Shown in pieces: positions 1 to 9,980 of a DNA stretch of 40,326 nt. Every line of letters starts with the position of its first letter. Position 1 is the first letter of the stretch. Position numbers and translations under genes: made by a program. The DNA lies in IMG/VR virus record IMGVR_UViG_2531839665_000018, one strand, 5' to 3'. Source of the DNA: a virus. Taxonomy: Duplodnaviria > Heunggongvirae > Uroviricota > Caudoviricetes. Under the pieces are notes generated by a model. The model saw only the letters and a program-made list of their open reading frames with translations. It searched no databases and was not told the DNA's origin.

Positions 1-993
1 CTAATCGATGGACAGTTTATGGACACTTTCAGCCAGCGGATTAAAGTTGATCGCGTCCTGTAAAAAGTCCGGCGAAAAATGAGCGTACGTCATTGTTTGC
101 TGAATCGTTGCGTGCCCCAGGATTCGTTGCAACGTAACAATATTTCCGCCATTCATCATAAAGTGTGTGGCAAATGTATGACGCATGACATGCGTAGCCT
201 GCCCCTTCGGCAAATCCGGTTTCACCTCCTGAAGAATCTCCCGGAACTTCAGATAATCAACCTGATACAATAACCCCGTTCGACGGGTTTTAATCAGAGG
301 CACGACCGAATCCGCCACAGGAACCGAACGGGATTTTCCGTTTTTGGTGTTAAAGAACGTCACCCGGTTGCCAACGATATGCTCTCCACGTAGTTCCGAT
401 GCTTCACTCCATCGGGCACCAGTAGAAAGACACAGAATGGCAACACGACGCGCATCACCCTCCAGTCGCTCAAGAAGCCGTTCAATCTCATCATCAGAAA
501 GAAAGGCCATCTCTGTGTTCTGAACTTTCAGTTTTCGTATACCGCGTACAGGGTTCGCGTTGTGAAAGACCTCAGCTTCAATCAGCACCGTGAACATGGT
601 AGACAGTACGCATAAGTCACGATTAATACTGGACGGCATTAATCCGGCCTGTAATTTCTCTGACCGATATTCAAGCATAAATTTTCGCGTCATCTGACTG
701 GCGCGAGGATCTCCCATTTCACGAACAACCTTCCCTAGCCTAACCCTGTAGCTATCCCCGTAAGCCTGATTACGCCCATCAAGCATCCACCACGCATCAA
801 GCAGCTCTGATAATCGCCGCTGATCAGCTGGCTTAGCCTGCCATGGCTTGTCATGAAAGTTCTGTAACACATACTTCTCAAACTCCTGAGCCTTTGATTT
901 CAGGGCAAAGATTTTTCGAACCCGCTTTCCTTCCGCCCCCTGCGGTCTGACATCGACCTGATAACGTCCGTCTTTGAGTTGCTTAATCGACAT
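1..993 (-). CDS. int: Phage integrase, tyrosine recombinase (P2 Int-like)
   Basis: 331-aa product starting MSIKQLKDGRYQVDVRPQG, the typical N-terminus of P2-family integrases; C-terminal region has the R..H..R..Y catalytic-type residues (HVMRHTFATHF, TYAHF). The track ORF extends 5 codons further upstream to a TTG at 1008. Confidence 0.9.
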   Translation of the reverse strand: MSIKQLKDGRYQVDVRPQGAEGKRVRKIFALKSKAQEFEKYVLQNFHDKPWQAKPADQRRLSELLDAWWMLDGRNQAYGDSYRVRLGKVVREMGDPRASQMTRKFMLEYRSEKLQAGLMPSSINRDLCVLSTMFTVLIEAEVFHNANPVRGIRKLKVQNTEMAFLSDDEIERLLERLEGDARRVAILCLSTGARWSEASELRGEHIVGNRVTFFNTKNGKSRSVPVADSVVPLIKTRRTGLLYQVDYLKFREILQEVKPDLPKGQATHVMRHTFATHFMMNGGNIVTLQRILGHATIQQTMTYAHFSPDFLQDAINFNPLAESVHKLSID

Positions 994-1062
994 GATTAGC
1001 CCCTCCAACGGATAAATTAACTAAACACTCCTTGCGATATGTAATTCGCTCAATGTGTAGAG

Positions 1063-1404
1063 TCAGCCAACATTGCGGCCTGATCGGGGTGATTTTTGGG
1101 TAATACCGATTGAAACCTGATCGCCCTCCGACTGAATAGATCCATCAAGAGAGAGAGCCGGAGCAATCTGCCCGGCGACAGGTAGCGTCTTATCTTTTAT
1201 TAGCCACAGCATGTATTTTTCAAAGCGATCGACTTGCAGAACCGCCTCAACGATTTTTGCTCTAGCGTTCTTTTGCCCCGATTCGTAATTCCTTATGGTT
1301 GCCAAAGACAACCCAGTAATATCCGCAAACTGCTTTTGTGTTAACCCTTCCGCCTTACGTATCTGACGTAACTTTTTTGCATAGTCTATTGACAAGATAA
1401 CCAT
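1063..1404 (-). CDS. Immunity repressor (P2 C / 186 CI-type, HTH_XRE)
   Basis: HTH segment LTQKQFADITGLSLATIRNYESGQ; same strand as int and directly upstream of it; divergent from the early operon. Start chosen at the third Met (MVILSIDYAKK); starts at 1437 or 1458 are possible. Confidence 0.7.
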   Translation of the reverse strand: MVILSIDYAKKLRQIRKAEGLTQKQFADITGLSLATIRNYESGQKNARAKIVEAVLQVDRFEKYMLWLIKDKTLPVAGQIAPALSLDGSIQSEGDQVSIGITQKSPRSGRNVG

Positions 1405-1450
1405 TTGAGTATTAACCTCTCGCACAAAGATAACCATTTGGTTATCTTTA
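1389..1450 (+). promoter_or_regulatory. Lysis/lysogeny switch region: candidate early promoter (-35 TTGACA 1389-1394, -10 TATTAA 1410-1415) flanked by direct repeats GATAACCATTTG (1396-1407, 1429-1440); second repeat sits in a 9-6-9 inverted repeat AAAGATAAC-N6-GTTATCTTT (1427-1450)
   Basis: Motifs read directly from sequence between the repressor start and the first early gene. Arrangement (two direct repeats bracketing the -10) matches the P2 operator paradigm. Confidence 0.45.
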
Positions 1451-1508
1451 CAAGCCAAAACAAACCATCACAAGGCGCGACAAGCGCACCAACGCAAGAG
1501 GATAACAA

Positions 1509-2030
1509 ATGCGGGACTTCATTGCCGATAAAGAGTTATCTGACCACCAACCACTTCAGGAAAGTGACGCACTCAGCGGATCCATTGATGCCGCCAACGA
1601 CGACGAACACGAAGAAAACAAGAAAAAGCGTTCCTACAAAAAAGGAGCGACTTTACGGCTGGATGGTCCGATCGCCGGGCTTTGCTCTCTGGAAAAAGGC
1701 GCGGCATATATTGGGCTAACAAAATCTGCACTGCGCGTAGCCATTCATCGCGGTCAAATGCCGGGACACAAGACGCGCACAAACCCGGAAGATGAAAACT
1801 CAGACGGAGTATGGTGGTTTAACGCCAAAGAGTGGGACAAGTTGGCTGATGAGCTACCAGAGCACGAGCCCCCAGAATGGCACAACTGGAAAAGTTACTG
1901 GACGTATGACCGCCAGAAAAGGAAGTTCTCTCCAGCTAATAAAGAAGACTGCCAGACCATTAACGGTAAGCGAGTTTATACAGGCAGAAGCTCAAAACTG
2001 AACCAACTCAGAAACAACAGAGGCAACTAA
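1509..2030 (+). CDS. Cox/Apl-like early DNA-binding protein with N- and C-terminal extensions
   Basis: First gene of the early operon; RBS AAGAGGA before ATG; central segment AAYIGLTKSALRVAIHRGQMP...GVWWFNAKEW resembles the Cox HTH core, but the 173-aa length is about twice that of Cox/Apl. Confidence 0.45.
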   Translation: MRDFIADKELSDHQPLQESDALSGSIDAANDDEHEENKKKRSYKKGATLRLDGPIAGLCSLEKGAAYIGLTKSALRVAIHRGQMPGHKTRTNPEDENSDGVWWFNAKEWDKLADELPEHEPPEWHNWKSYWTYDRQKRKFSPANKEDCQTINGKRVYTGRSSKLNQLRNNRGN

Positions 2031-2463: not shown

Positions 2464-2655
2464 TTAAAAATCAACCAGTTGTGTGACAGGTGGGTATTTA
2501 CGCTGAATTTTGTCAGTTACTAACGCCAGTAATATATGAATCTCTGCGTTTAATGCGTCTTTATCACCCGTCGTTTTTACCCTAGGAGGGTTAATGTTAT
2601 CCAGAGCAGCACTAAGGTCACTCAACAAATTAACAACTTTTTTATCTTCTGACAT
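2464..2655 (-). CDS. Hypothetical small protein, convergent with the upstream gene
   Basis: 63-aa ORF on the opposite strand with a good RBS (GAGG, 5 nt spacer, ATG); stop codons of the two genes are 6 bp apart. Confidence 0.4.
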   Translation of the reverse strand: MSEDKKVVNLLSDLSAALDNINPPRVKTTGDKDALNAEIHILLALVTDKIQRKYPPVTQLVDF

Positions 2656-2790
2656 GAAAACCTCTAAACAATTTAATTAAACATAAGCCAGGACCTGAAC
2701 CGGCCAGTCCAAGTCCTAGACACACAAAAAATACCACAAATCAATACAAGGTGACACGAGTACACCTTACCGAAGGTACAGAGTTTTAAT

Positions 2791-3141
2791 ATGAAACTAC
2801 AGCGCAATTCTTCACAGCCGCGCTTCCGCAACGGTGCGGAACGCCACGCTAACCGTTTCGCTACCAGTGCATCACGTAGCAACTCTCGCTACAGCCTGAG
2901 CGAAACACACGCAACGCCGGATGGCTACCCAGTAAAACAAATCGGCGAGCATACCTGGCTGATTGAGAAAGCTGGAATTGTGGTCCACAAATGCCCACGC
3001 AATCCGTTTACCGGAAACCGCATTTTTGCATTGAGCTGTGGCGACAATCAGTTTGGGCAGGATTTCACATTATACGAAGCACTTCGCACGGTTGATCGTC
3101 TGCTTCGCGGGCAAAGTTTTATTAAACAGGCTGATTTATAA
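2791..3141 (+). CDS. Hypothetical early protein
   Basis: 116-aa ORF in the early operon; no recognisable motif. Confidence 0.5.
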   Translation: MKLQRNSSQPRFRNGAERHANRFATSASRSNSRYSLSETHATPDGYPVKQIGEHTWLIEKAGIVVHKCPRNPFTGNRIFALSCGDNQFGQDFTLYEALRTVDRLLRGQSFIKQADL

Positions 3142-4776: not shown

Positions 4777-5072
4777 GCACCATCAACCACCAGGAACTAC
4801 GCGAACTGGCGACTGACCTGCAACGAATGGCAACGCATCAAAAATTACTGGCGTTTCGCGCAATGCTCTCGCCGTCTGCTGTGCTGGCACTGCTGGATGA
4901 GCTGGAGCACGCCAGAACCATGGCTCCAGCCATTCGCCTGACGCTCCATCATGAAATCGCTGATTTCTGCGCAACGCTGGGTTCACCTGGCGAACCGGAA
5001 ACACCGGAAGCAATACAGCGCGAGTTATTACAACGCATCAATAACGTTTTTGATTTTTTCCTTAACCAGTAA
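4773..5072 (+). CDS. Hypothetical early protein
   Basis: 99-aa ORF, start overlaps the upstream stop. Confidence 0.45.
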   Translation: MSTINHQELRELATDLQRMATHQKLLAFRAMLSPSAVLALLDELEHARTMAPAIRLTLHHEIADFCATLGSPGEPETPEAIQRELLQRINNVFDFFLNQ

Positions 5073-5083
5073 GGGATCGCAGC

Positions 5084-5287
5084 ATGAACAAAAAGACCTG
5101 GTTTCGCGCATACATGTGGGCGCTGGTATGCGTCCTCGTTTCTCTCATTCTGTATGCAGGACTACTCCCCCGAATGATTTCATCAGACAGCTCCTTCCTG
5201 GTATTGCTGGGCATTTTCATTGCCATGCTGTACCCGGCAGGCGTTGTTCGCCTTTTCAGTAAGTACATCAAGGAAATCAAACAATGA
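5084..5287 (+). CDS. Small membrane protein (two predicted TM helices)
   Basis: 67 aa, two hydrophobic stretches; stop overlaps the start of the SPFH gene (ATGA). Confidence 0.5.
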   Translation: MNKKTWFRAYMWALVCVLVSLILYAGLLPRMISSDSSFLVLLGIFIAMLYPAGVVRLFSKYIKEIKQ

Positions 5288-6114
5288 AGAAACTCAAACT
5301 CTTTCAGATTATCCCGCTTTTTGCCGCCATCCTGCTGGTTGGTTGCGATCGCGTTGAGCCAGGTAATGTGGGCATCAAAGTCAACAAACTGGGCGACGAC
5401 AAAGGCGTCGGCGAAGTGGTTGGCGTTGGCCGCTACTGGACTGGCTGGAATACCGAGGTTTACATCTTCCCGACCTTCAAACAAATGAAGACCTACGATG
5501 AGCCGTTCAGCTTCCAGATGAGTGACGGCACAACCATCGGCTATCACATCGGTGTGGCCTACAAGGTTGAACCATCAAAAGTTACTACAGTGTTTCAGAC
5601 CTACCGCAAAGGCGTGGATGACATTACCGACACTGACCTGCGCCAGAAGATCGCCGATGCACTCAACCGACTGGCCAGCAAAATGACCACCGACAAATTT
5701 ATCGACGGCGGGAAATCTGAACTACTGGATGCAGCTCTTAAAGACATTCAGGAGGAAATGACACCCATCGGCATTCAGGTAATGAGCCTCTCTTATGTCG
5801 GTAAACCGGAATATCCGCCAACCGTTATCGACAGCATTAACGCCAAAGTCACGGCAAACCAGAAAACCCTGCAACGCGAACAGGAAGTCAAGCAACGCGA
5901 AGCAGAAGCCAACATGTTGCGCGCAGAAGCTGCCGGACAGGCTGATGCCATTCGCACAAAAGCCCAGGCTGAAGCCGACGCCATTCGTTTACGCGGCGAA
6001 GCTCTGCGCCAGAATCCCGGCGTTATGGAGCTGGAAGCAATCAACAAATGGAACGGCACGCTGCCGCAATACATGACCAGCAACACCGCTGTTCCGTTTG
6101 TTCCGGTGAAGTAA
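5284..6114 (+). CDS. SPFH/band-7 (stomatin/HflK-like) domain lipoprotein
   Basis: Lipoprotein signal peptide with lipobox LLVGC; C-terminal Ala/Glu/Gln/Arg-rich coiled-coil-like tail (QREQEVKQREAEANMLRAEAAGQADAIRTKAQAEADAIRLRGE) typical of SPFH proteins. Family call made by eye, no HMM. Confidence 0.7.
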   Translation: MKKLKLFQIIPLFAAILLVGCDRVEPGNVGIKVNKLGDDKGVGEVVGVGRYWTGWNTEVYIFPTFKQMKTYDEPFSFQMSDGTTIGYHIGVAYKVEPSKVTTVFQTYRKGVDDITDTDLRQKIADALNRLASKMTTDKFIDGGKSELLDAALKDIQEEMTPIGIQVMSLSYVGKPEYPPTVIDSINAKVTANQKTLQREQEVKQREAEANMLRAEAAGQADAIRTKAQAEADAIRLRGEALRQNPGVMELEAINKWNGTLPQYMTSNTAVPFVPVK

Positions 6115-6120
6115 TTAAAC

Positions 6121-6166
6121 CCGGCCAGTGAAAATCGCTGGCCGGAGCAGTATCAGGATTTTTTTA
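6121..6166 (+). terminator. Candidate intrinsic terminator after the SPFH gene
   Basis: CCGGCCAG / CTGGCCGG 8-bp stem with 9-nt loop, then a T-run at 6159-6165 (13 nt from the stem, so marginal). Confidence 0.35.
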
Positions 6167-6282
6167 GTATGCCGTTCTCACAAAAAAACCGCTTGCCATG
6201 CCGCAATCAGTCAGGTTACATTTCCGCTGCACCTCATAAAACGGGTGCCGGGATTCTCAACCCGATACAGAGCAAAGCGCAT

Positions 6283-6303
6283 AACCGCGCAAGCGGTTTT
6301 TTT
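6283..6303 (+). terminator. Candidate intrinsic terminator (GNRA-type loop)
   Basis: AACCGC-GCAA-GCGGTT stem-loop followed by seven T. Confidence 0.4.
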
Positions 6304-6482
6304 GTGCGTACTGTATTGCCACGTCTTTTTCGCGTCAGAATTATGGCGGGGCGTACGGGGCCGACTTCGGTCGGGCCGGATTCTTTGCTCTCCGGTGTTG
6401 AGAACCCTGTACGTCTCGCCACCCCGAGATTCTCAACTCTGGATGGTGAGTTATTTCTATCACCGAGCAAAGAGGCCACACC

Positions 6483-6713
6483 ATGGCAGACCGCAAACAG
6501 CACCGCGCTATCGCGGAGCGTCGTCACATCCAGACTGAAATCAACCGCAGACTTTCCCGCGCATCACGCGTCGCGCAAATCATGCACATCAATATGCTGC
6601 ATGAGCGCAGCCACGCACTATCAAACATTTATTCCGCCTCTGTTTTCAGCTATCTGGCGGATGATCTGCACGAGCTTCAACAGCTCATCCAGCAGCAAAA
6701 CAAACTCCATTAA
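6483..6713 (+). CDS. Hypothetical protein
   Basis: 76-aa ORF with RBS AGAGG upstream. Confidence 0.45.
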   Translation: MADRKQHRAIAERRHIQTEINRRLSRASRVAQIMHINMLHERSHALSNIYSASVFSYLADDLHELQQLIQQQNKLH

Positions 6714-6785
6714 TTCCTGTTCCGGGCCTTTCCTGCACCTTGCGGCGGGAGGCCTTCGCACATCTGTAACAAGAGGATTGCCGCA

Positions 6786-7151
6786 ATGATTCTCGCCAAC
6801 GACTTTCTTGAATACCTGCTCGACACAGAACGTGATCTTGCCGCTCGCGTGCGTGATCGTTATGACATGTACCTGAAATCCCTGCCTGTACCGCAGCTCG
6901 CTAACGGAAAGATTGTTATTGATGGTCGCTACATGATTGACAGCCACGAGGGAAATTACAGGCTTTACCGCATTGAAGGTGGCACCCCGTCCGTTATTGG
7001 CATTTACCAGCGCCCATCCTCTGCAATCGTCGATGTGATTGCCGACAGCATCCGCATCACACATCGCCATGCCGACACAGAAGACACCGTGCTGGAAATT
7101 CAGCGGCTGGCTACAGTCTGCCGCGACACCCTGAATGGCATGACGAAGTAA
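6786..7151 (+). CDS. Hypothetical protein upstream of A
   Basis: 121-aa ORF immediately before the replication gene. Confidence 0.5.
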   Translation: MILANDFLEYLLDTERDLAARVRDRYDMYLKSLPVPQLANGKIVIDGRYMIDSHEGNYRLYRIEGGTPSVIGIYQRPSSAIVDVIADSIRITHRHADTEDTVLEIQRLATVCRDTLNGMTK

Positions 7152-7157
7152 ATCACT

Positions 7158-9980
7158 ATGACGGCAGAGTACATCAGGGACTGGCAACAACCGCGCCACG
7201 CAGTGGGGCGTGAAGGAACGGGGATCCCCGCTCCTGAATCCGCGCTTTCCTCCTGGCTGGATGCTTACCGGGTAGAGAACGAGCGCCGCCAGGAAATGGC
7301 TGACGCGGCGTTCTCCGCCACACCGCTGGGCAACCTGATTAATAAAAGCCTGGACGCACAGGAAAAGCAGGACAAAACCATCACACTGGCCAGAGAAGCC
7401 AGAAAACAGGCACGCGGTGCGGTGGATGAAGCCATGGCCTCGCTGCGCCTGCTGCCGTCCTATCTGCGCGATCCGCTTATTCGCCACCTCTCCTTCCTGC
7501 GCAAAAAACAGGAAGCCGATCGCCGGAAAGGCAAAAAGAGCTGGCAGGCGGAACGCTATGCACGCGGAACCCTGCGCAAAATATTGGAACGTCTGGCCCG
7601 CACTGACGGACGCTGGCTGACTCCGGGTTATCGCTCCCTTGCCGGACGTGAACGTCTGGACGATTTACTTTACCTGCCGCAGCTCAACAAACACCAGATA
7701 CAGACACTGGCCGTCATGACGGCGGCAATGTTCAGCAGCACCTTCGAAAAACTCTGCGATGGCTTTGGCGCGACCGATGGCGAGCTGACCATGGATATAA
7801 CGCTGAAGGCGTATCAGCTGCTGGCTCGCATGGCGTTACATCTGCACACAGTGCCTCCGCATTATGACGCACTGACAACAGACAAAGACCGGAGGAACGA
7901 ACCGGACACAGAACTGCTGCCGGGTGCAATCCTTCGCCTGACCTGTGCGGACTGGTGGAAACGCAAATTGTGGCTTTTACGTTGCGAATGGAGAGAGGAA
8001 CAACTCCGCGCTGCCTGTCTGGTTTCCAGAAAAACATCCCCCTATCTGAGTCAGGATGCATTAAGTGAATTTCGCGCACAGCGCGAGAAAACACGCGATT
8101 TCCTGAAAAGTTTCATGCTGGAAAATGAAGACGGGTTCACGATTGATCTCGAGACAGTGTATTACGCGGGAGTAAGTAACCCGGTTCACCGTAAGGCAGA
8201 AATGATGGCCACCATGAAGGGGCTGGAACTTCTGGCCGAAGCCCGTGGCGACAAAGCGGTGTTTCTGACTGTCACCTGCCCGTCAAAATACCACGCTACA
8301 ACAGAGAACGGTCATCCGAATCCCAAATGGAACGGGGCCACCATGCGCGACTCCAGCGATTACCTGGTTAACACGTTTTTTGCGGCGGTCCGCAAGAAAC
8401 TGAACCGCGACGGCCTGCGCTGGTATGGCATCCGCACGGTGGAGCCTCACCATGACGGCACCGTGCACTGGCATATGATGGTCTTTGCTCATCCGGAAGA
8501 AATCGACACCATTGTGTCCCACACCCGCGATATTGCCATTCAGGAAGATCGTCACGAGCTGGGCGATGATATTACTCCGCGCTTTAAGGCGGAGTATGTC
8601 GACGGCTCAAAAGGCACGCCAACCAGCTACATCGCCACCTACATCGGAAAAAACCTGGACAGCCGCGCCGTGGATGGCATCGACCCGAAAACAGGCAAAC
8701 CACGCGTTGACCACGAAACCGGAAAATCAATGACCGAGAGCGTGGAACGCGCCATTGGCTGGGCGCGCCTTCACCGGGTCCGCCAGTTCCAGTTCTTTGG
8801 CATCCCCTCCCGTCAGGTGTGGCGTGAACTGCGTCGCCTTGCCAGCCAGATGGCACGCAACCCGGAAGGCCCGCAACGGCTGAAGGATGACGCAATGGAT
8901 GCGGTTCTTGCTGCCGCTGATGCCGGATGTTTTGCCACCTACATTGAGAAACAGGGAGGCGTACTTGTTCCACGCAAGGACTACCTGATTCGCACCGCCT
9001 ACGACCTCGCAGATGAGCTGAACGATTACGGCGAACAGAGCGTACAGATTTACGGGATCTGGTCACCACTCATCGGGGAATCCTCCCGTGTGTGCACGCA
9101 CCCGGATAACTGGAAGCTGGTAAGACGTAAACCGGGAGTAGAAGACAGCGCCCGCGAAAATGGTTTTGACCTTCAGGGCGGCCCTGCCGCCCCTTGGACT
9201 CGTGGCAATAACTGTCCCCGTGTACAGGAAACGGACAACAACGGGGCAGAACAGCCGGAAGAACGGCCAGCACCGTGGCCGCAGCTCCCTGACGGCGTTG
9301 AAGTGAACGAATGGATGCGCTCACTGAAACGGCACGAACGCCGGGCGCTGATGCGTTCGCTTCGTGACAAACAGGCAAAAAACAGCAGTGATGAAATGCA
9401 GAGCTGGACACAGAGCCGCAAACAGCAGCGGCCTTTGCCTGATAACCACGAATTACTCGCTAAAGAATGGCGGGAGTCTGCCGAATCTCTCGGCCTGCAT
9501 ATCGGTGAACAGCAGATGCAGCACCTGCTACGGGGCGGCAGCCTGTACGTTGACGGCAGCATCATTGCACCGCAGGGATATGAAATTGTACGCAAACCGG
9601 ATACCCGCCCGGACAGCCGAATCACGCAGCTCTGGCAGCACCTGAGCCGTAATCACGGCGTAAGCAGCACGGAGATCCGCCATAACCCGGTCGCCAGCTA
9701 TCTGGCACAGCTGGGGGCATCAGACCCCGGAGCCGCCGCACGCCTGGCATCCGCACTTCAGCAGGACCAGAACACCATGAAAACACCCGTTACCGTGCTT
9801 TCTGACATGCTGCGCGCCATCCGCGGCGCAGAGCACGCACAGAGAATCAGTGAAACCACTGAACGCGCCAGCCGCAAAGCAGACCTGCTGCAGGGTGGCC
9901 TGACCAGTGGAAACAAAAAACAGACAGAAACGGGACTCACGAATCCCGTAAATGAGCAAAAAACGCGCAGCGATATATGA
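7158..9980 (+). CDS. A: Rolling-circle replication initiation endonuclease (P2 gpA family) with a ~200-aa C-terminal extension
   Basis: Conserved HUH-type core: VEPHHDGTVHWHMMVFAHPEE and tyrosine-bearing SYIATYIGKNL; 940 aa, longer than typical A proteins. Confidence 0.85.
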   Translation: MTAEYIRDWQQPRHAVGREGTGIPAPESALSSWLDAYRVENERRQEMADAAFSATPLGNLINKSLDAQEKQDKTITLAREARKQARGAVDEAMASLRLLPSYLRDPLIRHLSFLRKKQEADRRKGKKSWQAERYARGTLRKILERLARTDGRWLTPGYRSLAGRERLDDLLYLPQLNKHQIQTLAVMTAAMFSSTFEKLCDGFGATDGELTMDITLKAYQLLARMALHLHTVPPHYDALTTDKDRRNEPDTELLPGAILRLTCADWWKRKLWLLRCEWREEQLRAACLVSRKTSPYLSQDALSEFRAQREKTRDFLKSFMLENEDGFTIDLETVYYAGVSNPVHRKAEMMATMKGLELLAEARGDKAVFLTVTCPSKYHATTENGHPNPKWNGATMRDSSDYLVNTFFAAVRKKLNRDGLRWYGIRTVEPHHDGTVHWHMMVFAHPEEIDTIVSHTRDIAIQEDRHELGDDITPRFKAEYVDGSKGTPTSYIATYIGKNLDSRAVDGIDPKTGKPRVDHETGKSMTESVERAIGWARLHRVRQFQFFGIPSRQVWRELRRLASQMARNPEGPQRLKDDAMDAVLAAADAGCFATYIEKQGGVLVPRKDYLIRTAYDLADELNDYGEQSVQIYGIWSPLIGESSRVCTHPDNWKLVRRKPGVEDSARENGFDLQGGPAAPWTRGNNCPRVQETDNNGAEQPEERPAPWPQLPDGVEVNEWMRSLKRHERRALMRSLRDKQAKNSSDEMQSWTQSRKQQRPLPDNHELLAKEWRESAESLGLHIGEQQMQHLLRGGSLYVDGSIIAPQGYEIVRKPDTRPDSRITQLWQHLSRNHGVSSTEIRHNPVASYLAQLGASDPGAAARLASALQQDQNTMKTPVTVLSDMLRAIRGAEHAQRISETTERASRKADLLQGGLTSGNKKQTETGLTNPVNEQKTRSDI

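Follow-up and report, generated by a model that had tools for sequence, protein, structure and literature searches.

RNA immunity modules are known from phages P1 and P7 (immI), from N15, from Gifsy-1 (isrK) and from the satellite P4, and a short region of an Escherichia coli prophage, described here, very probably harbours another module of this kind. The region occupies positions 6115-6482 of the IMG/VR record IMGVR_UViG_2531839665_000018. This record, the whole 40,326 nucleotides (nt) of which are referred to as the window, is a P2-family prophage of the P88/Xuanwuvirus type that shares 94 % identity with Escherichia phage P88 over positions 5900-6800. Among the known systems, P4 is the closest in gene content. 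An earlier note on this region had listed repeats and hairpins, and had proposed an attenuator, a small RNA (sRNA) or a cluster of protein-binding sites.

For P4, PMC10111431 describes eta, CI and seqA and detection with the Rfam models C4 and isrK. As summarized there, a promoter lies inside eta, full-length Eta comes only from an upstream late promoter, translation of Eta prevents termination, and the CI-dependent premature termination is Rho-dependent. In the P4 sequence, the isrK model matches seqA (8615-8692, minus strand) and the C4 model matches the CI RNA (8420-8507, minus strand), with epsilon following. The eta open reading frame (ORF; 214 aa, 8168-8812) spans the promoter, seqA and CI, and its end overlaps epsilon. 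Gifsy-1 IsrK is a structural homologue of P4 seqA (Hershko-Shalev et al., PMC4825925). It binds Hfq, and partial read-through of its terminator yields a long isoform; within the isrK family both are known for Gifsy-1 only. A processed RNA found downstream, STnc1160, is complementary to IsrK and derives from the read-through transcript, and it is on this read-through mRNA that the short form of IsrK works in trans, turning on translation of the downstream anti-repressor (PMC4825925). For P1, the order in the GenBank annotation is promoters, a1, b1, C4, a2, b2, icd and ant, with b2 beside the icd start. The supplement of Weinberg et al. (PMC2864571) describes a c4 motif and a two-hairpin c4-a1b1 motif holding a1 and b1 just 3′, and gives statistics on the UNCG or GNRA tetraloop that often caps the first C4 hairpin. 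For P4 CI/seqB and the N15 CA RNA, our literature search gave secondary descriptions only.

When the whole window was scanned with Rfam at the gathering thresholds, exactly two matches were above threshold and both lie in this region, an isrK-type RNA followed by a C4-type RNA. A scan for tRNA and tmRNA genes gave no match. The RNAs, their predicted control signals and the short elements discussed below are as follows.

6193-6222, plus strand: predicted sigma-70 promoter of the isrK-like RNA (TTGCCA, 18-nt spacer, TACATT)
6229-6303, plus strand: isrK/seqA-type sRNA (63.1 bits with Rfam RF01394, cut-off 50)
6254-6261, plus strand: a1, TTCTCAAC, in the loop of isrK hairpin 2, complementary to a′ of C4
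6269-6277, plus strand: b1, AGAGCAAAG, complementary to b′ of C4
6283-6306, plus strand: intrinsic terminator of isrK, AACCGC-GCAA-GCGGTT (6283-6298) followed by seven T, also reported by a terminator scan
6339-6426, plus strand: C4/CI-type antisense RNA (78.5 bits with Rfam RF01695, cut-off 45)
6383-6391 (6382-6391 as a feature), plus strand: b′, CTTTGCTCT, loop of the third C4 hairpin
6397-6404, plus strand: a′, GTTGAGAA, single-stranded junction of C4
6430-6437, plus strand: a2, TTCTCAAC, 4 nt past C4
6465-6473 (6465-6475 as a feature), plus strand: b2, GAGCAAAGA, overlapping a Shine-Dalgarno sequence

The isrK-type RNA folds with −24.2 kcal/mol (z −3.1) into two 5′ hairpins and an intrinsic terminator, as in the family. 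The terminator hairpin with a GCAA loop in the earlier note is present and is the isrK terminator; the loop is GCAA here and GCCA in 67 of the 86 relatives. The predicted promoter ends 6 nt before the 5′ end of isrK, with a predicted start near G6229, and both of its hexamers are invariant across 86 loci. A sigma-70-like promoter also ends 6-7 nt before isrK in P1, P4, N15, mEp460, two Shiga toxin (Stx) phages and a Salmonella phage, and on this homology the promoter here would be used. A second sigma-70-like match (TTGCCA-17-AATTAT, 6316-6344), just 5′ of C4, is probably no promoter because about half of the relatives have TCGCCA as the −35 and because the "−10" is the conserved C4 leader AATTAT.

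The C4 match covers the full length of the model (positions 1-87 of RF01695). By comparison with the GenBank annotation of P1, the mature RNA is predicted at about 6345-6423, and the minimum free energy (MFE) fold of 6345-6423 (−47.1 kcal/mol, z −5.3, ensemble frequency 0.73) reproduces the family structure, a long closing stem around two hairpins with a UUCG loop. The UUCG hairpin recognized earlier (core CCGAC-UUCG-GUCGG, 6361-6374) is stem P2, the second hairpin, of C4. In this fold, CUUUGCUCU forms a hairpin loop, whereas GUUGAGAA is part of a junction that stays single-stranded. The RNA has a conserved AAUUAU leader and a GCCACC 3′ end, and by analogy RNase P would presumably release it from a longer precursor.

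The string TTCTCAAC has only four copies in the whole 40-kb window, and three of them fall inside 184 nt. These are the three copies that the earlier note had found at 6254, 6430 and, inverted, at 6397, and they correspond to a1, a2 and a′. A second triplet, b1/b′/b2, which that note overlooked, is built in the same way. The b2 element overlaps the Shine-Dalgarno sequence AAGAGG (6470-6475) of a gene for a 76-aa protein (ATG at 6483), and when the read-through RNA is folded unprocessed (6229-6500, MFE), b′ and a′ already pair in cis with b2 and a2 and the Shine-Dalgarno sequence is buried.

Covariation was assessed in 80 IMG/VR loci, three species-representative genomes and phage records, which together represent 41 distinct variants. 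For a1:a′ and b1:b′, 95.9 % of cells are paired and 10 pairs have changed on both sides (slid controls, 38-59 %); for a′:a2 and b′:b2, the values are 95.6 % and 9 pairs (slid controls, 39-48 %). Taken alone, b1:b′ is paired in 100 % of cells with 6 pairs changed on both sides, and b′:b2 in 98 %. Across the P88-like variants, the a and b sites form no fewer than 14 combinations. In an alignment with five related phages, the backbone is nearly identical from 6179 on and the variation is concentrated in six patches that change together. P1, P4, N15, mEp460, the two Stx phages and the Salmonella phage have the same triple complementarity with other sequences, and in the downstream regions compared, those of P1, N15, mEp460, the Stx phages and the Salmonella phage, b2 abuts the Shine-Dalgarno sequence. 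The triple complementarity and the co-change in relatives are strong evidence that the short repeats are specificity-setting RNA-RNA recognition elements, as in P1/P7 heteroimmunity. At the level of sequence comparison, this shows that they are pairing elements and that they co-evolve. The covariance analysis of homologous regions suggested in the earlier note thus supports pairing, and its sRNA option is borne out, with two Rfam families present and the short repeats as their pairing elements.

Past the pairing elements, the operon runs on into the replication gene.

6483-6713, plus strand: gene for a 76-aa homologue of the helper-derepression (anti-repressor) protein epsilon of P4, the presumed regulated gene
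6786-7151, plus strand: 121-aa ORF of the same operon, 3′ of the 76-aa gene
7158-9980, plus strand: P2-type replication gene A (Pfam Phage_GPA, 432 bits)

With 32.5 bits, the 76-aa protein passes the cut-off of 27 for the Pfam family "Derepression" (PF25738), and BLASTP aligned it with P4 epsilon at 32 % identity across 50 aa (E 6e-9); BLASTP found no similarity between it and P1 Icd. The 121-aa ORF was considered as a homologue of P4 ORF151, and the similarity was not significant.

By homology with the known systems, transcription would start near 6229 from the promoter at 6193-6222, and the terminator at 6283-6306 would stop most transcripts, leaving an IsrK/seqA-type RNA of about 75 nt that bears a1 and b1. 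Transcripts that read through would hold the C4/CI-type RNA (about 6345-6423), presumably excised by RNase P as in P1 and P4. Its exposed elements b′ (hairpin loop) and a′ (junction) would then pair with b2 and a2 just downstream. Because b2 covers its Shine-Dalgarno sequence, pairing there would block translation of the epsilon-like anti-repressor gene; by analogy with P1 and P4, the block would also permit termination ahead of the 121-aa ORF and gene A. The copies of a1 and b1 on the short RNA would titrate C4 and so serve as a decoy, or anti-antisense. Such a role of the a1/b1 copy has reportedly been proposed for P1. A decoy-type role of IsrK has been shown in Gifsy-1 (PMC4825925). Most likely, isrK and C4 together keep the anti-repressor gene off, and the replication gene behind it is probably kept off as well.

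The same succession of isrK and C4 is seen in P1, P4, N15, mEp460, Stx phages and a Salmonella phage. P4, whose immunity region comprises PLE, seqA, the CI RNA, seqC, the eta/kil ORF, epsilon and the alpha operon, has, like the window, an isrK-type seqA and a C4-type CI under one long ORF, then epsilon and, further on, replication genes. However, the element here is a complete P2-type phage, i.e. of the helper type, whereas P4 is a satellite, and the replication gene is P2 gene A here and the alpha primase in P4. The distance from isrK to C4 is 35 nt here and about 107 nt in P4, and that from C4 to the start codon is 56 nt as against about 245 nt. The immI region of P1 and P7 has nearly the same order and spacing, and sets specificity through a′/b′ and their co-varying targets. 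Its first regulated gene is Icd rather than an epsilon homologue, no Ant/KilA-type anti-repressor follows in the window, and the module in the window lies inside a long early operon, unlike immI. In Gifsy-1, isrK-orf45-anrP shares with the window an isrK-family RNA, and it has a leaky terminator, a processed RNA (STnc1160) at the position of C4 and an anti-repressor under translational control, as the window would by homology. The AUG of the conserved AAUUAUGG leader at which orf45 starts is also present here, in frame within the long ORF considered below. Gifsy-1 differs in its lambdoid context, in AntQ as the final output and in its short orf45, which reaches only to the start of anrP. The anti-immunity locus of N15 (immA; cA RNA) likewise has an isrK and C4 tandem with its own promoter and terminator. 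The a′ element of its C4-type RNA (1502-1589) is identical to GTTGAGAA of the window and the a2 target TTCTCAAC is also the same, although the b specificity is different and the genes downstream are of the icd and antA/antB types; partial cross-talk between N15 and the window prophage is conceivable.

The whole RNA module is overlain by a long open frame.

6169-6789, plus strand: ORF of 206 codons, counterpart of P4 eta

This ORF begins with an ATG located 5′ of the isrK promoter, and its end, ATGA, overlaps the start of the 121-aa ORF. The frame is open to this ATGA in 83 of 88 related loci. In the RNA part, the three frames have 9, 9 and 1 polymorphic stop positions (49 colinear variants), and the binomial estimate for one or fewer of 19 such stops in one frame is about 0.005. 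An in-frame ATG is found 7 or 10 nt before position 6179 in at least five different upstream junction contexts. Substitutions in 6179-6482 are spread over the codon positions of this ORF without bias (15/16/16). The frame is kept open, like that of P4 eta, with no sign in the sequence of constraint on the protein. The earlier statement that no credible ORF lies here holds at the protein level, where the codon positions show no bias and the other ORFs (6128-6538 and, on the minus strand, 6234-6527) had no family matches, but it does not hold for the frame as such, which is stop-depleted and kept open. By analogy with P4 eta, the ORF is probably a leader whose translation is restricted to transcripts that begin at the early promoter near cox, which would let lytic transcripts through the module.

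The ORF has a weak match, 18.6 bits and below the cut-off of 26, to Pfam Phage_ASH (PF10554), over the isrK-C4 nucleotides. P4 eta (82 bits), a lambdoid Rha-fused ORF (55 bits) and N15 gene 32 (28 bits) are covered by Phage_ASH at exactly these nucleotides. Since the matches coincide with isrK-C4 in P4, lambdoid phages and N15 alike, this family probably reflects RNA conservation read in frame, not a protein fold. The spans of the matches are 6217-6496 in the window, 8329-8704 (minus strand) in record L092 and 1494-1785 in record L007.

Two other explanations would do without an RNA switch. Were the region simply protein-coding, the ORF would make a functional protein and the RNA-like features would be incidental. 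The frame is indeed open in most relatives and stop-depleted, it has the weak Phage_ASH similarity and it is an annotated coding sequence (CDS) in 569R5, P88_4B11 and PhiR44_2; the labels in several phage records are hypothetical protein, "Ash family" and "transcriptional regulator". However, the substitutions are even over the codon positions, the variation is concentrated in six patches with the co-variation of RNA pairs, the cut-offs of two Rfam models are far exceeded, the Phage_ASH match is most likely the RNA read in frame, and RefSeq E. coli genomes carry no annotation here. We consider a coding explanation improbable. Still less credible is the proposal that a regulatory protein of the phage binds the repeats as DNA sites, and we would allow it only the slightest chance. 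All that speaks for it is the repetition of 8-9-mers in direct and inverted orientation. Each repeat family fits antisense pairing exactly, with one antisense copy in C4 and two flanking sense copies, and the copies change in concert so that Watson-Crick or G-U pairs are kept, which is a signature of RNA and not of DNA sites. RNA-RNA complementarity accounts for every repeat, and the protein-binding site cluster suggested earlier found no support.

A number of points weigh against an RNA immunity switch of the P1/P4 kind. The c4-a1b1 motif (Rfam RF03163) reaches only 15.9 bits here against a cut-off of 46.7. P1 passes this cut-off and P4, with 44.1 bits, is just under it. The two c4-a1b1 hairpins correspond to isrK hairpins 1 and 2, and in the window they are caught by the isrK model instead; P1 matches the c4-a1b1 model and not isrK, and the window the reverse. 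The presumed regulated gene is a homologue of neither Icd nor Ant. The analogy with P4 is inexact, since the epsilon-like gene is nested out of frame in the ORF at 6169-6789 and P4 epsilon comes after eta, and in 3 of 88 loci this ORF has a premature stop inside the isrK-C4 part. The promoter, termination, processing and repression are all deduced, and C4 action on translation, on termination or on both would look alike in the sequence.

The remaining repeat is longer than the pairing elements and of a different kind.

6179-6196, plus strand: left arm, CACAAAAAAACCGCTTGC, overlapping an A-tract, the −35 of the isrK promoter and codons 4-10 of the ORF at 6169-6789
6289-6306, plus strand: right arm, GCAAGCGGTTTTTTTGTG, within the isrK terminator

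As the earlier note had reported, this is a perfect 18-bp inverted repeat with arms 92 nt apart, the right one overlapping the terminator. It extends to 28 nt at 86 %, and the pair is unique in the 40-kb window (chance expectation, 0.06 matches). The left arm is invariant in the 41 variants while 12 of the next 32 columns, in the promoter spacer, vary. Of the 18 arm pairs, 17 never vary; the sole variable pair, in the terminator loop, is unpaired in 35 of the 41 variants. With arms that are almost invariant, the comparison says nothing for or against RNA pairing. More diverged P2-type copies were sought, but tblastn of the phage collection gave only nine Xuanwuvirus-type records, a scan of genome contigs gave three loci, all with identical arms, and in the 80 IMG/VR loci the arms were also invariant. 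In P1, P4, N15, the Stx phages, mEp460 and the Salmonella phage, a search for an analogous arm gave only chance matches of 7-9 nt. P4 and N15 thus have no left arm, and none upstream of isrK has been described for Gifsy-1; as judged from these sequences, the inverted repeat is confined to the P88-like clade. The left arm was also considered as a stand-alone terminator on either strand; inspection revealed no partner stem and the terminator scan listed none.

Because the left arm is upstream of the predicted isrK start, only transcripts that come from upstream carry it. Transcripts starting at 6100, 6160 or 6229 were folded by equilibrium partition function with 3′ ends from 6296 to 6310. For those from 6100 or 6160, the terminator has P<0.01 and the long helix between the arms P>0.93 at every 3′ end, and for those from 6229 the terminator has P of about 0.9. 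In the GCCA majority variant, the helix is mismatched, and with the 3′ end at 6298 the terminator equals or exceeds the long helix in probability. The region thus has the mutually exclusive pairings of an attenuator, with probabilities that switch with the 5′ end of the transcript, but the anti-terminator pairing has no compensatory change in the 41 variants and is absent across distant homologues. The earlier proposal that the left copy acts as an anti-terminator is therefore upheld in part, in that upstream transcripts lose the terminator on equilibrium folding, and not upheld in that compensatory change is lacking and the arm is limited to one clade. It is plausible but unproven.

We regard it as a tentative possibility that the left arm is an anti-terminator specific to the promoter of origin, such that transcripts started upstream would read through to the replication gene and those from the isrK promoter would terminate. 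The arm can pair with the loop, the 3′ half and the U-tract of the terminator, it is upstream of the predicted start, it replaces the terminator by the long helix on equilibrium folding of the transcripts that bear it, and it is invariant beside promoter-spacer columns that vary (12 of 32). It is found only in the clade in which the module lies inside a P2-type early operon, and that operon is not known to have N-type antitermination. However, the arm has the sequence of the 5′ half of the terminator, not its complement, and must therefore win the 3′ half from a distance of 92 nt against a neighbour 4 nt away, a kinetic handicap that equilibrium folding ignores. The helix is mismatched in the GCCA variant (67 of 86 loci), there is no compensatory change and the variable pair is unpaired in 35 of 41 variants, the −35 hexamer, the A-tract and the ORF start would account for the invariance just as well, and a ribosome translating the ORF at 6169-6789 would cover the arm. 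Somewhat less likely still is that the arm is mainly promoter DNA, seven A at about −46 to −40 resembling an UP element and then the −35, and that it matches the terminator only as a relic of evolution, such as an inverted duplication of a terminator half, with no role at the RNA level. The arm may also simply belong to the start region of the ORF. The A-tract and the −35 are suitably placed relative to the predicted start; the N15, P1 and Stx homologues, which have no A-tract, carry TTGACx and so a stronger −35 than TTGCCA with its 18-nt spacer; and with both arms invariant there is no argument for RNA pairing. An UP element would explain the seven A, but not the flanking CAC/GTG and CCGCT/AGCGG matches, which make up 8 further complementary positions in all variants and 11 in the window, a length beyond chance expectation.

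It is possible that the clade-specific left arm aids the same bypass of the terminator as the eta-like ORF. More broadly, and with about the reserve that attaches to an anti-terminator role of the arm, the P88-like phages may have an RNA immunity module built into a P2-type early operon together with a device, the eta-like ORF and a 15-18-nt arm, that sorts transcripts by promoter of origin. If so, early (lytic) transcripts would pass the terminator and escape C4, and transcripts from the internal promoter would terminate and supply the immunity RNAs. The result would be a helper-type P2-family phage with an RNA-gated epsilon-type anti-repressor in many heteroimmune specificities, and the repeat with the eta-like ORF would be a simple case in which the promoter of origin decides the fate of a transcript at one terminator.

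Of 5426 complete E. coli genomes, 1181 contain the 314-nt module, and a single genome may have as many as four copies. Identities to the module in these genomes form two main bands, ≥99 % and 80-90 %, a distribution that fits discrete specificity types. In the RefSeq E. coli genomes, nothing is annotated at the locus. The P88 record has a minus-strand "hypothetical protein" CDS (5033-5221) across the RNA genes, three other phage records have a 205-aa ORF (2494-3111) across them, and the P88 and phiSM papers (PMC5285337, PMC6456863) do not mention the locus. Identification as an RNA immunity switch would correct these spurious or questionable CDS calls and would explain how near-identical P88-like prophages come to differ only in six short patches. 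With at least 14 a/b specificities arising from the six patches, co-resident prophages are probably heteroimmune at this locus. The RNA families and the architecture of P1 immI and of P4 immunity are already known. What may be new is the placement in a P2-type early operon before an epsilon homologue and gene A, the breadth of specificities and the clade-specific repeat. Classical P2 is not inducible. Members of the P2-family lineage considered here are mitomycin-inducible or spontaneously released (PMC5285337; PMC6456863), and an epsilon-type anti-repressor is a candidate induction route for them.

Upstream of the module, the prophage carries the following genes, with the early genes from Cox onward all on the plus strand.

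1-1008, minus strand: integrase
1063-1458, minus strand: helix-turn-helix C-type repressor
1509-2030, plus strand: Cox, followed by a run of plus-strand early genes
5284-6114: SPFH/Band_7 lipoprotein gene, directly 5′ of the region

A perfect hairpin with an 8-bp stem (6121-6145) lies just past the SPFH/Band_7 gene, and the two together form a cargo block (5284-6145). This block is present only in some P88-like phages; elsewhere an Ead/Ea22-like gene abuts the RNA module. The 3′ end of the SPFH/Band_7 gene, tested over 5900-6081, matches phiP27 and many Stx phages at about 92 % identity. Two exact direct repeats may be due to chance. One, TGCCGCAAT, occurs three times, at 6062-6070, at 6199-6207 in the promoter spacer and at 6779-6787 at the ATGA junction with the 121-aa ORF; the other, CTGCACCT, occurs twice, at 6227-6234 at the 5′ end of isrK and at 6733-6740 after the 76-aa gene. 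The 76-aa gene and the 121-aa ORF are separated by 72 nt (6714-6785) that are GC-rich, with a possible pairing GGCCT...AGGCC, and almost invariant, even in a Citrobacter phage that is 85 % identical.

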